Below, one piece after another: positions 7,924 through 16,864 of a DNA stretch of 64,000 bases (its first letter is position 1; every line of letters begins with the position of its first letter). The notes under the pieces are model-generated. The model saw only the letters and a program-made list of their open reading frames with translations. It had not been told where the DNA came from and ran no database searches. The translations under genes were made by a program, and so were the position numbers. Origin of the DNA: an uncultured Nitrospiraceae bacterium (GTDB lineage Bacteria; Nitrospirota; Thermodesulfovibrionia; Thermodesulfovibrionales; UBA6898); contig CAWEQH010000010.1 in NCBI GenBank assembly GCA_963811165.1, forward strand, positions 448,001 to 512,000. The letters run 5' to 3'.

Positions 7924-8760
7924 GTGGAAATTATAAATGCAAAGAAGAAAATTGAGAGCCTTAGCGTTGAGAAGGCAAAGGAATGGGTTGCGGGCAAGAA
8001 AAAGGATGATTTTATTCTTCTCGACGTACGTCAGCCTGAAGAATATAGGACGGGCCATCTTCCCGGGGCCGCGTTTATCCCGCTGCCGGACCTCATAGAC
8101 AAAGTTGGTGAACTTGATCCTGCGAAAGCCGTGCTCGCCTACTGTAGAAGCGGCAACCGAAGCAGGGCAGCTGCGGCATTTTTACTAAGCGAAGGGTTCT
8201 CTAAAGTGTACAGTATGGACGGAGGTATCACCGCATGGAACGGGCATGTTGCAACAGGAGACTACACTGAAGGTCTTGTTCTGCTCAAAGGAAGGGAAAC
8301 AACAGAAGAATTAATGTCACTGGCCCTGGCCCTCGAGGAAGGCAGCCGAATATTTTATGCGGGCATCGCAGAGTCAACGTCCGACGCGGAAGCGAAGATC
8401 ATATTCACTGCAATCTCAAAGGCCGAAGCAAAACATAAGACGAATGTCCTTCAGGCTTACACGCTGGTTACGGGAAAAAACGTCTCTGAAGATATTTTGA
8501 ATAGTGAGCCGCTAAAGGGAGTCATGGAGGGAGGTGTCAGGATTGAGGACGCCATTGGCTTTCTAAATAAGCAGGGCAATGCCTTGTTGGATACACTTGA
8601 AATCGCAATGCAGGTTGAAACTAACTCGCTTGACTTGTATATCAAAATGTTCCGGGAGATAGAGGACATAAAAGCAAAGAAAATCTTCGGTGGCCTTATC
8701 GAAGAAGAAAAACTCCATCTGTCCGGATTGGGAAATCTCCTTGGTGCAACGCTTCGTTAG
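7924..8760 (+). CDS. Rhodanese domain fused to ferritin/rubrerythrin-like domain
   Basis: LLDVRQPEEY, GHLPGA, YCRSGNRS, DGGITAW; C-terminal EEGS..FY / EAKH / ETNS..LY / EEKLH diiron-type motifs. Confidence 0.85.
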   Translation: MEIINAKKKIESLSVEKAKEWVAGKKKDDFILLDVRQPEEYRTGHLPGAAFIPLPDLIDKVGELDPAKAVLAYCRSGNRSRAAAAFLLSEGFSKVYSMDGGITAWNGHVATGDYTEGLVLLKGRETTEELMSLALALEEGSRIFYAGIAESTSDAEAKIIFTAISKAEAKHKTNVLQAYTLVTGKNVSEDILNSEPLKGVMEGGVRIEDAIGFLNKQGNALLDTLEIAMQVETNSLDLYIKMFREIEDIKAKKIFGGLIEEEKLHLSGLGNLLGATLR

Positions 8761-9865: not shown

Positions 9866-10714
9866 TTAGAGTATCCCAACTGCTCTTTCCTCTTCAAGCC
9901 TGATAAACTCAGCTGGTGTTAGATCGCCAAATGAACTATGAGGCCGCTCATTGTTGTAATCGAGCCGGTGGTCTTCTGCGATCCCACGGGCATGCCCTAC
10001 GCTCATGAACCAGTGCAGATTCAGACATTCATCCCTGAACTTGCCGTTGAAACTCTCCATATAGGCATTATCAACAGGCTTCCCAGGCCGAATGAAGTGA
10101 AGCTTCACACCGCGCTCATACGCCCATGCATCCAAGGCGTTGCTTATAAACTCGGGGCCGTTGTCAACGACAATTCGGTCAGGCAGCCCACGAAACGCTG
10201 CTATCTGGCTTAAGACTGTACAAACCCGCTTGCCTCCAATCGATGTGTCCACCTCGATCCTGAAACATTCCTTTGTATACGTGTCGATTATCGGCAAGAA
10301 CCTCAGCTTCCTTCCGTTATACATTGCGTCATGGAGAAAATCCATCGCCCAGAGCTCGTTTGCTTTACTCGCCGCTGAGATTTCAACTCTTCGCTGTGAT
10401 GCCAGTTTCTTTCTCCTTCGAACCCTTAATAACAGCCGCTCCTCACGGTAGAGCCGTTCTGTCCGCTTATGATTGACCACCAGTCCCTCTCTCTTTAACA
10501 TTACATGCAGTCTCCGGCATCCAAATCGCTTCCTCTGCTCGGCTATCTCCTTCATCCGCTTCCGAAGAGCCTCGTCGGCGTCCGGTCTTGGTTCATATCG
10601 CAGGGTGTTCCTGCACAGTCCTATAAGGCGACTTGCCCGCCTCTGACTCAGCCCAAAGCTGCCTATAACAAATGCCACTGCTTCCCTGCGTGCCTTGGGC
10701 CTTAGAAGTTTTTT
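9866..10714 (-). CDS. IS3 OrfB, DDE integrase core, reached by -1 frameshift
   Basis: WAMDF, VDNGPEF, PGKPVDNAYMESFNGKFRDECLN, YNNERPHSS; slippery AAAAAAC at 10708-10714. Confidence 0.92.
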   Translation of the reverse strand, partial: KKLLRPKARREAVAFVIGSFGLSQRRASRLIGLCRNTLRYEPRPDADEALRKRMKEIAEQRKRFGCRRLHVMLKREGLVVNHKRTERLYREERLLLRVRRRKKLASQRRVEISAASKANELWAMDFLHDAMYNGRKLRFLPIIDTYTKECFRIEVDTSIGGKRVCTVLSQIAAFRGLPDRIVVDNGPEFISNALDAWAYERGVKLHFIRPGKPVDNAYMESFNGKFRDECLNLHWFMSVGHARGIAEDHRLDYNNERPHSSFGDLTPAEFIRLEEERAVGIL

Positions 10715-10969
10715 GAGACGACCGCCTTTAAAGCCTGATTATCAAGGGTCAGATCAGCCACAAGATGCTTCAGACGCCGGTTCTCATCTTCCAGCTGCTT
10801 CAGCTTCCTTGCATCGCTTACGGTCATCCCTCCGTATTTTGCCTTCCAGTTGTAATAGGTCTGATCGCTGACCCCATACTTCCGACAAAGTTCCGTTACT
10901 GAGAATCCCTGCCTCTGCTTCCTTGATTATGCTGATAATCTGTTCCTCCGAATATCTGACCTTTTTCAT
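10702..10969 (-). CDS. IS3 OrfA (HTH), with an extra +1 indel near 10905
   Basis: MKKVRYSEEQIISIIKEAEAG / VTELCRKYGVSDQTYYNWKAKYGGM...LKQLEDENRRLKHLVADLTLDNQALK. Confidence 0.85.
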
Positions 10970-11083
10970 CCTTGCCTCCCTGCTTAGAGTGTTTATATTA
11001 TGCCTACACTCTAATTACGTGTGGCACATTTTTCGGGGGGCAGGTCCTCGTTAATCAACTATGGGGAGGCCAAGCTTTTATCT

Positions 11084-11165
11084 GGCTAACATACAAATTC
11101 CGATATTATCGGAGCGGTTTCCGTCTAATAACTGCTTGAATAACATCGGATTTCCGTTGTTAGTG
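11084..11165. other. attC-like imperfect palindrome
   Basis: GGCTAAC...AAATTCCGATATTAT / ATAACATCGGATTT...GTTAGTG, 82 bp, one unpaired base in the left arm. Confidence 0.45.
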
Positions 11166-11279
11166 CAATTACGGTCTAATAACGTTTTTGCGCGGGGAAG
11201 AAGGTGAAAGAATAATGATGAATATCTACTTGATCGCGATATACATACCTCAATCAAGAACAAAGGATAATACATATAG

Positions 11280-12110
11280 AAGGATTTGGCAGATATCTCG
11301 AATATGTGCAACATTATTTCCTATTCTCTACTAAAGTCAAGTGATGATTTGACTTGCTATCATATTAGAATCTTCTTAAAACAGTCGCGTCTGGATGTTC
11401 GATGCCGTCCAAATATCTTATATCTAATGCCGCTATATATCCTTCACACTTGCAGGAACGAGCCTTATTCGAAGTTTCTATATATCTAGAGTGGATGTTA
11501 AAAGATAATACATTGGAAAAAGCTAAGTATTATTATGTAGCCAACTTAAGACAAGAACGGCTTTGGGCATTGAGGACTCAGGATGCATAAGTATAAATAA
11601 TGCCTTTAAAAACTGGTTACCGCTTTTTTATTATGGAATAAATATCTCCTCTGGAGTTGTGGGCAGCGTAAAAAATTATTAGAGCAAAAGACAAGCGTCG
11701 CAGTATAGTGAATATACTTTAATTAAGGAAGCTAATATGTGTCTTTAAACAAAAAGAAATTGAATTAGATCCTCCCGGCATAAAATTTGGACGGGCAACG
11801 TTCGTCAAAGAGCAATTAAAACCTCACGAATACACACTTTTCGTTAATTACAATCTTTTATGCACGCAACACGAAAAGGGTATGTCTTTTTAAAATGGGT
11901 TCATGTTATTTATCCTGTTAGATCCTTGAAAGACATCTAAGAGTTTTTCTTTATTCTATATCTATCGAATTATTAAAAATAGCTATACAACATCATTATA
12001 GGAGACGAGCGTACGGCGTATCTAAAAAATATGTTGAAGATTGGAGAAAGCCTTTTCGCAACATTAAGATAGCTAAATATTATGATGCGAATGAGTCTGA
12101 TCTAATAATT
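11280..12110 (+). pseudogene. Degraded AT-rich gene, DUF5677-like
   Basis: Fragment LISNAAIYPSHLQERALFEVSIYLEWMLKDNTLEKAKYYYVANLRQERLW; many frameshifts; boundaries approximate. Confidence 0.4.
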
Positions 12111-12266
12111 TAAACAGAATATGACAAGACGATTTTTATAACTCCTTCCTGTAACTGAGACATATGGAACACTTATTATCGACAACTATATTTACGGTAA
12201 CTTCATGGGTTAGCGTTGAACGAACTTAGTTTAGAACATTAGCAATCTCCGTGTCGAGGATTTACC

Positions 12267-13456
12267 TTGAAGATAGGTACGATAATATCAAACGGAATCA
12301 TCATTGTCCTTCTCTTGGCCTCGACATCTGCCGTTGCCCAAATACTTCCTGAAGACCCATCCAAAGGGGGCCAGCTGTTTGTAAGCAAGGGATGCGTGAA
12401 ATGCCATGCCGTCAAAGGTGAGGGAGGAAAGACCGGGCCGGATCTTGGCATTATCAGTCTCGGCGGCACCCAGACTGGATCTGGCAGCGGAGATCTGGAA
12501 CCATACTCCCTCCATGATCGCGGGCATGGAACAAGAGGGGATCACCAAACCAACGCTGACCGGTCAGGAATTTACCGAGATCACCGCCTATCTCTATTTT
12601 CTCAGATTCTTTGATAAGCCCGGAGATGCCGCTCAGGGGAATACCTCTTCGACTCAGAAGGGCTGCAACTCCTGTCATCGTGTCTCGGGCAGAGGCAAAG
12701 ACGGCGGGCCCGGGCTCGATGAGTTTCCCCGGAACGCTTCGCCGGTTTTCATGAGCCAGGCGATGTGGAATCACAGCCTGCGGATGATGGCCCGCATGGT
12801 GCGGAGCGGAAAGAGTGGCCCAATTTTGAACGGAAACTGAGATGATGGATACGCTGGCTTATATCAAGACAAAGGCAAAGGGGGCGGAAGAGCCTTTTTT
12901 CTTCAAACCCGGTAATCCCAAGGAAGGCAGGGCGGTCTTCAATGCCAAGGGATGTACCAAGTGCCATTCAGTCCATGGCGAAGGCGCAAAGGAAGGCATC
13001 GATCTCGGGAAAAGAGCGGAGTCCTTTTATACGAGCCTCACCCAGATCGCTTCGAGCATGTGGAACAAGAGCCCTGAGATGATCCTGTTCACGAGAGCCC
13101 CAACGCAAGTGCGAGGTTCCCCGGTTCACCGCGAAAGAAATGACCGATCTCCTCGCCTATCTTTACTTCCTCCATTATACGGATGAGCCCGGGGATGCAT
13201 CGAAAGGGAAAAAGATCTTTTCAGACTATCGGGTGCGCACAATGTCACGGACTGGACGGGAAACGCGGAACACTGATGTATATCGATCTCTCCAAATACC
13301 GGAACAGCCAGCCGACCGAAATCGTAGCCAGTATCTGGAATCACAGCATCAAAATGCAGAGAGGCGACAGGAGAGAAAGGTGTTCCCTGGCCTCAACTTA
13401 AAAAAGGAGAGATGGCGGACCTTCTGGAATTTATCCGGACTCCCGTAAAGAAATAA
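12267..13456 (+). pseudogene. Four-heme cytochrome c with repeated domains, about 5 frameshifts
   Basis: Signal peptide; CVKCH, CNSCH, CTKCH, CAQCH in successive frames, each followed by (I/M)WN(H/K). Confidence 0.8.
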
Positions 13457-13643
13457 CGGCCGGTCAAAACCTCCCCCGCGATCCCCTGAGTCTCGTCGTT
13501 AACGATTATGTTTAGAGAAATCATAATAGATTCGATATGCATGATCTATCATTATGTCGGTGCTATACGTAACAAAATGGATTGAACCTCAAGTGCACTG
13601 AGGGTCATGATAAATCCTGCTTTTTCAAATAGAAAGAGGAGGA

Positions 13644-14627
13644 ATGATGACCAAAGCAGGTTCAATTCTCAGAGCAATCGTCAGTGACATCGAAGTAGTC
13701 AATTACCAGCCCCCCATTGATCGTATTCTTCAGAGGATCTCTAAGTTAGACCTTCCCGGCAGAGAGCATTTCGAGAGCTACATGCGCAACAAGTGGAGAA
13801 TGAACCACAGGCCAAGTACTCTTAAAGGCAGCTTCGTCGCTGTGAGTTCCTTTCTCATTTTCTATGGTGGCCAGGGGAAGAGTCATATCGAGGCGATTGC
13901 CAGTAACGACCTGGAGGCGTTTGTCGAACGCGAGCAGGATCGGGGCTTAAGACAACACGTCCTGAACATACGGCTAGTGCTTTTTGCTTTTCTTTGTTTT
14001 CTGATCGAACAGGATATCATTACTGTCAGATACAAATACAAGATTTAAAATCGAAGATCCCGATTCCTGCCGAGGGCCATTGCGCCGGGCGATGTCAGAA
14101 AGATTCTTGGTGTCATTAAGGAGATTCGTGACCGTGCCCTAATCCTCGTGCTCTTACGGACAGGCATGAGAATCGGTGAGCTTCTCAGCTTGAAGATGAT
14201 AGATCTTGATGTCCGTGAGAGGAAGATACACATCTATGAGGGCGAAAAGAACTATCTTGGGCGAGTGGTTTATCTGAGTGATGATGCACTGATGGCCTTA
14301 GGGCGCCGGGTTAAACAGAGAAATAAACAATAAATATCTCTTCATGGTCTGAGGATACTTATGTTATACCTCGGCCCGAAAAACTTTACATAGTTTAGAG
14401 AAAAGGGCTCCAACACAAAGGCTACACAATCCACAGCCTTCGGCATACCTTCGCAAGTGAACTGCTCAATGCCGGCATGCGCCTGGAATGTCTTGCAGTT
14501 ATTGTTGGGCCACCGCGATATAGAGATGACCCGACGATATGCCCGTCTGACAGATAAGAGCCGTGAAGAGGAATACTTCCGTGCCATGGAAATCATCGAG
14601 CAAGGAGGCATTAATGGGGCTTACTGA
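13644..14627 (+). pseudogene. Tyrosine recombinase 1 (XerC/D-like), frameshifted
   Basis: RDRALILVLLRTGMRIGELL; HSLRHTFASELLNAG...LLGHRDIEMTRRYARL. Confidence 0.85.
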
Positions 14628-15496
14628 TCTGATTGCCAAGTACCGAAGGTTCCTAAAGCGAAGGAACTGTTCGGCCAACACTGTAAAAAACTACATGAAT
14701 ATCCTCGGTCACTTCAATGTCTGGTCGCAGGTTTCTTTGGAGCAAATAACCCACAAAGAAACCGATGCGTATATGGACCATCTATTGAGAAGGAGAATGA
14801 AACCAAAGACTATCAACTGTCATTTCGGCTGCATCCATGCCTTCTACGATTATCTGATCGAAGATGAGAGAATGCCTCTTACCAATCCGGTAAGAAAGAA
14901 TTATAGGCTTCGTCTGCCCAGGCCATTGCCCAAACATCTAAGAGACGAACAGATTGTGACTCTCTTTAGGGAGATCAACGACACCAGAGATCGAGCCATG
15001 TTCATGCTAATGCTCAGGTGTGGTCTGCGTGTTGAAATGTTGACGATGACAGTAGATGCGATAGAGTATCGAGAGACAGCTTTATGTCTTCAATGCAGAG
15101 GCGGCAAGGACAGGGTTGTCTACCTGAGTGAAGATGCCCAGAGTGCCTTAGAGGCGTATATGCAGAAACGGAAATGGTCGAAGGAGAAAAGAGTGTTCTT
15201 AGTGCAGAAGGGGCCGCTGAGGGGAAAGCCGATATCAGTTCGCGGCATTCAAAAGAGGATTGAACACTACGCACAGAGGACTGGAACAAGCTGTATCCTG
15301 TCATCACTTGAGACATACTATGGCGACACAGCTCCTGAACGCCGATGCCGATCTCGTTACCATACAGGATCTATTGGGCCACAGCCGGATTACAACAACT
15401 CAATGTTACTGTAGAGTCTCCAATCTCAAAGTACAGAGAGATTACTTCAAGGCCATAGAGATTGTATTGCAGAGGACCCAACCGATAAGAAGCTGA
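14614..15496 (+). pseudogene. Tyrosine recombinase 2 (XerC/D-like), frameshifted
   Basis: SANTVKNY, LPRPLPKHL, RDRAMFMLMLRCGLR, HHLRHTMATQLLNAD...LLGHSRITTTQCY; RBS GGAGG, start overlaps the end of recombinase 1. Confidence 0.85.
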
Positions 15497-16023: not shown

Positions 16024-16270
16024 ACACCTCACCGCTCTTAGTTCGGGCGAGATATGGCATACATAAACAAGCCCTCTGCATTTTACGCCTCCCGCGATAA
16101 CCATAAGAGGGGGTGCTTCCTTCCTGAAAGCCCCGATAAATGAATTTGGTATAATTTGCATTGAACACATGGCAATTCACAACCGGGCTTCAGTCAGGTT
16201 AGAATAATATCATGAAAGTTCGGATGCCTTGATTGACATCTTGATCAATGCGAAAGTGGATGGAGGGCAT

Positions 16271-16672
16271 ATGAAAAAAGTGTTGTCTCTCGCAATCCTT
16301 GGAGTTCTCGTTTTGCTGACGGCGTGTGCGAAAATACAGGGCACCAGCGATGTGCCACGCGTTACAAAGGACGCGCTGAGGGCTCAACTTGCGTCATCGG
16401 GTCTGGTTCTTCTTGATGTGAGGACAAAGAACGACTGGGAAATGAGTAACGAAAAGATTGCCGGCGCCGTACGAATGGATCCACAGACGGTTGATGCCTG
16501 GGCCGGCACCTTGCCGAAAGACAAGGATATAGTCCTTTACTGCGCCTGACCAAATGAGGGCACGAGCGCCCGTGTGGCGAAACAACTGATTGCGAAAGGC
16601 TTCAAAGCAAAGGCTCTCAAAGGTGGCTGGAGAGAATGGTCCGAGGCCAAATACCCCGTCGAAAAGAAGTAA
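16271..16672 (+). CDS. Rhodanese-like lipoprotein, probable selenoprotein (in-frame TGA 16547-16549)
   Basis: Lipobox LLTAC; LLDVR...IAGAVR...IVLYCA-TGA-PNEGTSARVA...ALKGGWREW; frame stays open to TAA at 16670-16672. Confidence 0.85.
16550..16577 (+). promoter_or_regulatory. Putative bacterial SECIS hairpin
   Basis: GCACG-AGCGCC-CGTGT stem-loop starting ~11 nt after the UGA. Confidence 0.55.
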
Positions 16673-16864
16673 TCGATATTAAGCCATCGCCAGCGGTGGC
16701 ATGTTATTCTTGAGGTCTTGAGGTAAAATCTTTTATGGAATCGATAAAGAACCCCATCCTCTAAGAATATATTTGCAGTATTGCCCGGGCCGATGCACAC
16801 CCAAGTCTTGAGGCATGCTTGTTCCAGCCGCTGATAGGCGGGACGAAATTTCAAAGGCTCACGC

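Follow-up and report, generated by a model that had tools for sequence, protein, structure and literature searches.

A rhodanese gene on the plus strand of the window (the whole stretch of 64,000 nucleotides analysed here) contains an in-frame TGA, and the corresponding UGA is almost certainly decoded as selenocysteine (Sec). The selenoprotein gene is real and its family is already catalogued; what is gained is a corrected model of the gene. From the ATG at 16271 the frame reads MKKVLSLAILGVLVLLTAC...IVLYCA up to the TGA at 16547-16549, continues for 40 open codons (PNEGTSARVAKQLIAKGFKAKALKGGWREWSEAKYPVEKK) and is closed by a TAA ending at 16672. When the TGA is read through, translation gives a 133-aa product, called P0001 below, with Sec at position 93; the list of open reading frames ends the gene at the TGA, with a predicted product of 92 aa. 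A hidden 133-aa selenoprotein with Sec93 two residues past Cys91, its rhodanese C-terminal LxGGW motif supplied by the stretch behind the TGA, had been proposed in the earlier note. Both parts of the proposal were borne out: the frame is open to the TAA and contains the invariant residues of the motif, and the conservation of TGA or Cys at position 93, together with the Sec genes of the host, agrees with Sec93. The features of the gene are as follows.

16262..16266, + strand: GGAGG motif resembling a ribosome-binding site, 4 nt 5' of the ATG (putative function)
16271..16672, + strand: coding sequence of the CxU rhodanese P0001, with the TGA read as Sec93 (translation; 162.9 bits against NCBIfam NF041203, cut-off 115)
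16271..16327, + strand: predicted lipoprotein signal peptide, with MKK, a hydrophobic core (residues 4-17) and the lipobox L-T-A-C, Cys19 being at 16325-16327 (sequence pattern)
16541..16543, + strand: Cys91, the first residue past the last core strand (86-90 in the model) and the usual catalytic position of rhodaneses (Cys in 40 and TGA in 4, giving UxU, of the 44 loci with TGA at 93)
16547..16549, + strand: in-frame TGA, predicted Sec93 (conserved in two overlapping sets of matches; three DNA runs)
16616..16630, + strand: LKGGW motif of the rhodanese C-terminus, 3' of the TGA (G118, G119 and W120 invariant in the 29-row alignment A2)

P0001 matches NF041203 ('rhodanese_LYCAU, rhodanese-related (seleno)protein') over residues 13-133 (profile positions 5-126 of 126) and Pfam Rhodanese (PF00581) over residues 33-126 (positions 2-102 of 102; 49.3 bits, cut-off 22.2). 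Since both matches are completed by the read-through, the read-through is not due to chance. The protein carries the literal LYCAU motif (LYCA-TGA-PNE), that is, the C-x-U version of the C-x-U (or C-x-C) motif by which NF041203 is recognised, and it is the only one of five NF041203 matches in the genome to exceed the cut-off. The next-best named family, the chromate-resistance rhodanese ChrE (NF033833), reached 51 bits against a cut-off of 120, and the GlpE and PspE models gave no match to P0001 at E 0.001. The family is listed as rhodanese-like selenoprotein form 3, CxU, with TKB26178.1 as the example (PMC13188914), and as COG0607 form 2, CxU, among predicted selenoproteins (PMC9312934). No paper under the name 'rhodanese_LYCAU' and no biochemical work on the family were found in a literature search outside of which most subscription papers lay.

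The TGA across the phylum and the Sec genes of the host

The Sec genes of the genome (95.4% complete) all score above their cut-offs: selA with 612.5 bits, selB with 375.2, selD with 349.9 and tRNA-Sec with 69.5. It can be seen that selB lies about 540 bases downstream of selA, that selD itself has one in-frame TGA, and that the tRNA-Sec has the anticodon TCA, the only one of this kind found in the genome. The machinery on whose presence the earlier note had made its reading depend is present, and at position 93 homologues show TGA or Cys instead of the Trp, Arg or Gly that were to count against Sec. In this genome and 40 relatives, 19 of 19 over-cut-off matches (from 17 of the 41 genomes) have an in-frame TGA inside them, as have 24 of 24 (again from 17 genomes) in 201 genomes drawn across the phylum; three loci are common to the two sets. 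Altogether 44 distinct TGA loci and 85 Cys loci were collected, and the coding sequence behind the TGA is conserved across the phylum. Database homologues, judged by their protein ends with the stop codons out of view, end exactly at YC[AST] in 74 of 87 cases. Of the remaining 13, ten extend over the full length and carry Cys at 93, another shows Leu there, one stops two residues before YC[AST] ends and the last is divergent. A scan of the genome collection used a Cys-bearing pattern, so that it returned Cys forms only and is silent on the spread of the Sec form, and the search of representatives returned mostly multi-domain rhodaneses.

The distribution of selA was compared with that of the TGA in the 26 genomes of the phylum that have a match, a comparison in which kin are not independent. 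Of the 20 genomes with a TGA-bearing match, 18 gave a selA match, the other two being 86% and 89% complete; none of the six with Cys-only matches did. Outside the phylum, all three of the Cys-form genomes tested have selA, so the Cys form does not imply missing machinery. Among the 41 nearest genomes the comparison is uninformative, selA being present in 40.

Tandem pairs of TGA-bearing family genes, one YCDU and one YCAU, were seen in four genomes (G098:C277, G125:C67, G148:C25 and G209:C159; L146, L149, L150), and in genome G018 three copies exceed the cut-off.

Contigs from three DNA runs, two of them at least 99% alike, span the TGA, and no other letter is listed there. This support matters because the assembly appears to be frameshifted elsewhere. 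A dsrA match lies in four pieces in different frames (G000:C8:231910-234154), and that of the following paralogue in two. Together with a fabF-like gene (L058:1939-3185) and the cytochrome c and integrase frames at 12267-15414 of the window, the split dsrA suggests indel errors of the assembly; the dsrA-like gene also suggests sulfur metabolism in the host, although its match is fragmented and below the cut-off.

These frameshifts, the point at which gene callers end most homologues and the weakness of the hairpin described below in this genome might speak for the TGA as a true stop or an assembly error, and for the gene as a pseudogene or a 92-aa fragment. However, 44 distinct loci of the phylum share this TGA and have conserved coding sequence after it, the three DNA runs agree on it, and a 92-aa fragment would lack the active-site helix and the last strand of the model. 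As far as alignments can tell, conservation has already largely refuted this reading, and we hold it to be highly improbable. Decoding of the UGA as Cys or Trp by a suppressor tRNA or an altered code is just as remote: a second tRNA-Sec-like gene exists (57.3 bits), and tRNA-Cys of the selC* class, reported from Nitrospirae among others, can have a UCA anticodon and insert Cys (PMC5389517), but the second tRNA has the anticodon GCA and TCA is found on tRNA-Sec only, TGA terminates other family members at their normal C-terminus, and Trp occupies position 93 in only 2 of 46 single-domain representatives.

The second tRNA-Sec-like gene (G000:C4:471036-471125; L002; L058:5037-5126) scores over the cut-off of RF01852, is additional to an ordinary tRNA-Cys on C1 and resembles the selC* class. 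On one side of it lies the gene of a LysR regulator associated with selenium (NF040786, 290 bits), on the other are those of a CMD-family protein, a double rhodanese and the selenium-metabolism protein YedF (TIGR03527, 194 bits). Another call, a 92-nt 'tRNA-Cys(aca)' of ARAGORN at G000:C4:644207-644298 (L059), has a badly paired acceptor stem and is probably false.

A short conserved hairpin behind the TGA

For Sec insertion, the earlier note had drawn a hairpin from GCACG (16560-64) and CGTGT (16571-75). The letters are present, but the pairs are not conserved, and this hairpin was rejected. Its five pairs have an ensemble probability of about 0.001; in 21 distinct homologous stretches 65.7% of the cells are paired as against 65.8% in shuffles, with 304 of 500 shuffles as high; the closing pair is broken in 17 of the 21; and the loop is merely 15 nt from the UGA. 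Free folding of the sequence of this genome 3' of the UGA gave no excess of stability over shuffles in four windows (z from 0.57 to -0.75). The signal described next came from the alignment alone. A RNAalifold consensus of 22 rows (L041 and L057, which do not fit the motif pattern, were left out) has a stem of columns 21-24 with 30-33, equal to 16567-70 with 16576-79 of the window, which overlaps the hairpin first drawn.

16565..16579, + strand: conserved SECIS-like hairpin, with AG, stem CGCC (16567-70), loop CGTGT (16571-75) and stem GGCG (16576-79) (RNAalifold, pair counts, comparison of Sec and Cys loci)

With one outer pair included, 91.4% of the cells of this hairpin are paired; none of 500 shuffles, a test that ignores relatedness, was as high, and controls slid along the alignment gave 22-59%. 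Pair 21:33, both sides of which are third codon positions (Ser99 and Ala103), is U-A in 15 stretches, C-G in five and broken in one. All four pairs are present in 39 of 44 TGA loci versus 17 of 85 Cys loci, and a loop G in 44 of 44 versus 45 of 85; the inner C-G pair is kept in every TGA locus. The codon of Ser99 is AGY in all 44 TGA loci, AGY making up 30% of the Ser codons in long frames of this genome, and the codon of Ala103 ends in a purine in 35 of the 36 TGA loci with Ala there, versus 62 of 84 Cys loci. These comparisons are to be read with the nature of the Cys set: it comes from distant taxa, was picked by the pattern YCAC[PS][NH]E (the best 80 of 185 hits plus 6), consists mostly of DedA-length fusions (81 of 86), and has AGY in 19 of its 26 Ser-99 codons as well. 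L061, the Cys form nearest to the TGA loci, has the whole hairpin intact despite its Cys codon. Four loci with two TGA codons (U-x-U; L042, L056, L154 and L157) have the single conserved hairpin behind them. In two runs, the match of distant contigs is confined to about 16538-16579, and their loose ends begin at 16578-16580, where the stem ends.

A published SECIS model asks for a loop of 3-9 nt with G in its first two positions, a stem of 4-16 bp and a spacing of 16-37 nt (PMC13188914). The hairpin has a 5-nt loop C-G-U-G-U, in which the G is followed by U, a 4-bp stem, and a spacing of 21 nt between the UGA and the loop, all of which agrees with the model; the same arrangement is found behind 764 of 126,199 TGA triplets of the genome (0.6%). 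When enforced, the hairpin folds with -7.4 to -5.5 kcal/mol depending on the window and so falls narrowly short of the -7.5 that the published model sets as its limit. In this genome it is not the minimum-energy fold: with the upstream bases included its pair probability is 0.00-0.01, a competing stem that uses bases 16558-61 being preferred, and it rises to 0.85 after removal of the first 12 nt past the UGA. A ribosome that sits on the UGA would be expected to mask bases 3' of the codon. SelB may bind the hairpin at 16567-16579 while the competing upstream bases are masked in this way. What the comparison yields is the probable SECIS of the family, a minimal hairpin of 4 bp that is held by synonymous codon choice and that energy-based searches would miss in this genome.

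Fold, active-site loop and export

An AlphaFold2 model was built from the 29-row alignment with Sec as Cys (pLDDT 89.3, pTM 0.77); besides the last core strand it has a helix at 97-108. All top hits listed by Foldseek and VIA-align are rhodanese domains, the best being 3ict (Z 17.4, rmsd 1.6, 103 residues aligned); GlpE (1gmx) aligns with Z 14.7 and rmsd 2.6 over 105 residues. The modelled protein also has the marks of a rhodanese fold, namely the DxR motif (D49, R51) and the C-terminal GGW segment. No solved structure of a close relative was found, the best being 6mxv (E 7e-10).

Active rhodanese loops are of the type Cx4R/T or Cx5R (PMC10135228). Counted from Cys91, the Cx4R/T position is occupied by Glu96 and the Cx5R position by Gly97, so that neither pattern is present; Cx5R, the type of Cdc25/Acr2 phosphatases or arsenate reductases, would have Arg at Cys91+6, which only 3 of 44 TGA loci have. 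Counted from Sec93, the loop is of the Cx4R/T type, position 98 being Thr in 35 of the 44 loci and Ser in 8 more (in the same count, positions 96 and 99 are partly fixed by the search pattern). Sequence alignments are also split: the catalytic-position Cys of 3tp9 and of 4ocg falls on position 91, that of both 6mxv domains on position 93, without a gap in HMMER. Of 46 single-domain representatives with Cys91, 29 have Cys at position 93, 8 have Ser and 9 a different residue; six further single-domain representatives without a pattern match were left out of this count. This variation at position 93 favours Cys91 as the primary site, with Sec93 as its helper.

The best-ranked reading, to which we give slightly less than an even chance, is that P0001 is a CxU rhodanese of the known family, its UGA read as Sec, exported and lipid-anchored, in which Cys91 serves as the carrier site for sulfane sulfur or selenium and Sec93 as the resolving residue. 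The periplasmic sulfur/selenium transfer suggested in the earlier note is retained in this form, although it is weakened by a loop that, counted from Cys91, lies outside both active patterns, and by neighbouring genes that are not conserved.

A second, rather less probable reading is that Cys-x-Sec forms a redox module or a module that binds or senses soft metals or metalloids (under arsenite, mercury, copper or chromate stress), standing alone outside the membrane or attached to a transporter. This would fit a loop that has Glu96 and lacks the Arg of thiosulfate sulfurtransferases, ChrE as the next-best named family, the fusion of the domain to DedA/VTT, and the VTT, HD and Na/H-exchanger fusions among the structural neighbours in the Atlas. 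However, no metal-resistance or redox gene recurs in the 101 neighbouring frames that were scanned, ChrE stays far short of its cut-off, and PMC10127716 calls it unclear how a fused rhodanese relates to DedA function.

It is also conceivable, if unlikely, that the protein has the same carrier role but with Sec93 as the nucleophile, U93-P-N-E-G-T98 being the canonical six-residue C-x4-T loop headed by selenium and Cys91 the resolving residue. Thr or Ser at position 98 and the gap-free alignment of the 6mxv Cys with position 93 point to this reading; against it, Cys91 directly follows the core strand in the model and is the position onto which 3tp9 and 4ocg place their Cys, and position 93 is dispensable in part of the wider family.

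With Cys91 as the carrier and Sec93 as the resolving residue, the protein, after export and lipidation at Cys19, would face the periplasm, where Cys91 may accept sulfur from polysulfide or a protein persulfide, or bind selenium derived from selenite. Sec93 would then attack the loaded Cys91, the atom would be released or passed on, and the Cys-Sec selenenylsulfide left behind might be reset by a periplasmic reductant. All steps beyond the predicted fold are what we infer.

The N-terminus was compared with the lipobox consensus by pattern match. The sequence LLTAC, in which the earlier note had recognised the lipobox of a membrane-anchored protein, occupies residues 15-19 and follows a hydrophobic stretch. 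The proposal suits the close clade: under a permissive pattern, 72 of the 74 close homologues that end at YC[AST] have a lipobox-like Cys at the same place. A crude rule sorted 41 stand-alone TGA loci into 10 that combine a hydrophobic stretch with a lipobox-like Cys, 23 that have the stretch alone and 8 without any signal, so that an N-terminal hydrophobic stretch is present in 33 of the 41. In view of this split, the lipid anchor is a trait of the clade and export is common, neither being required. Lipobox, plain signal-peptide, signal-less and DedA-fused forms occur across the family; since 8 of the 41 TGA forms lack a signal and DedA fusions exist, export is not essential to the domain. 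P0001 itself is very probably exported and lipidated, to judge from its N-terminal residues.

The gene stands alone. On one side is the frame of a small membrane protein, with IS pieces and a broken integrase upstream; on the other lies a convergent unit whose first gene encodes an aldehyde ferredoxin oxidoreductase.

16683..16700, + strand: terminator-like hairpin 11 nt past the stop codon, which would fit a stand-alone transcript (4 terminator-like sites in the region, 1.2 expected)
16176..16205, + strand: weak sigma-70-like promoter match, TTCACA-18-TAGAAT (1 found, 1.3 expected in shuffles)

The promoter match, being not above chance, was dismissed. An RNA run was also set aside as evidence of transcription: its short pieces, of 90-95% or lower likeness, derive from relatives, and no transcription of the gene is shown by them. 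An all-against-all BLAST of 156 frames around 21 loci gave neighbours common to close kin only. A Pfam scan of 101 of 130 candidate neighbouring frames (E 1e-8, flanks mostly of about 1.5 kb) gave no recurring partner; the matches were to housekeeping families of various kinds, with isolated hits to DsrC, a redoxin and enzymes of Cys/Met metabolism. Just upstream, 9866-15414 of the window holds an IS-type transposase, fragments of cytochrome c genes and tyrosine-recombinase pieces, with lower G+C (0.35-0.50). A second rhodanese, with a canonical CRSGNR loop and fused to a rubrerythrin/ferritin-like domain, is at 7924-8760.

P0001 and related systems

Gene callers truncate this protein after residue 92, and 74 of its 87 close database homologues fare likewise; the gene model is now corrected, and a selenoprotein specialist would find nothing surprising in the gene. 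The soluble domain of 115 residues, with natural CxU, UxU and CxC versions, offers an easy test system for the role of selenium in rhodanese chemistry and is useful also for asking what an exported selenoprotein does. That the Cys-x-Sec rhodaneses form a distinct catalytic class, and are more than thiosulfate sulfurtransferases in which selenium replaces sulfur, is a proposal that we put forward with little confidence: a U-x4-T loop headed by Sec93 would serve a selenium-based relay of sulfane sulfur or selenite, in a portable module of anaerobes that is lipid-anchored at the periplasmic face, as P0001 would be, or fused to membrane transporters such as DedA. If true, it would provide a tractable candidate for the periplasmic sulfur-transfer parts of polysulfide respiration that PMC13510729 leaves open.

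P0001 and the NF041203 family have in common the score over the cut-off, the LYCAU motif, a single rhodanese domain and one Sec, and no defining difference was seen. The lipobox is a feature of the clade of P0001, whereas it is not universal in the family at large. In the main text of PMC13188914 the words 'lipoprotein', 'periplasm', 'signal peptide' and 'secreted' do not occur, yet the profile match starts inside the signal segment (residue 13). A rhodanese-related sulfurtransferase of Olavius symbionts has a second Sec, which gives UxU (PMC1976440), as in 4 of the 44 TGA loci; P0001, in contrast, has Cys at position 91, and family identity with the Olavius protein is suggested by the motif alone.

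The C-x-C fusions of DedA/VTT with rhodanese have the same C-x-C/U-P-N-E loop, and NF041203 matches their C-terminal domain with 68-89 bits. Fusions from the phylum of P0001 closely resemble named Nitrospira records, which makes Nitrospirota the likely phylum. Unlike P0001, they have a membrane domain attached, fall below the family cut-off and mostly carry Cys. Three fusions of the same phylum (L159, L163 and L166, from G194, G219 and G182) have C-x-TGA followed by the same hairpin and are probable membrane selenoproteins. The words 'DedA' and 'VTT' are absent from the main text of PMC13188914, and a link between DedA and selenite was met in the title of a reference only. ExtH of Geobacter sulfurreducens is likewise an exported rhodanese-like lipoprotein, tied to selenite handling (PMC13510729, PMC5877670); in contrast to P0001 it is of 49 kDa and belongs to a conserved cytochrome cluster, and the likeness is one of analogy by description.

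The single-domain thiosulfate sulfurtransferases GlpE and PspE, as well as Sud (1qxn), share with P0001 the fold, the strand-end Cys and the DxR motif. PspE and Sud are periplasmic proteins. P0001 differs from all three in a loop that is two residues longer before the conserved Ser, in having neither Arg nor Thr at Cys+5, and in a second chalcogen at +2.
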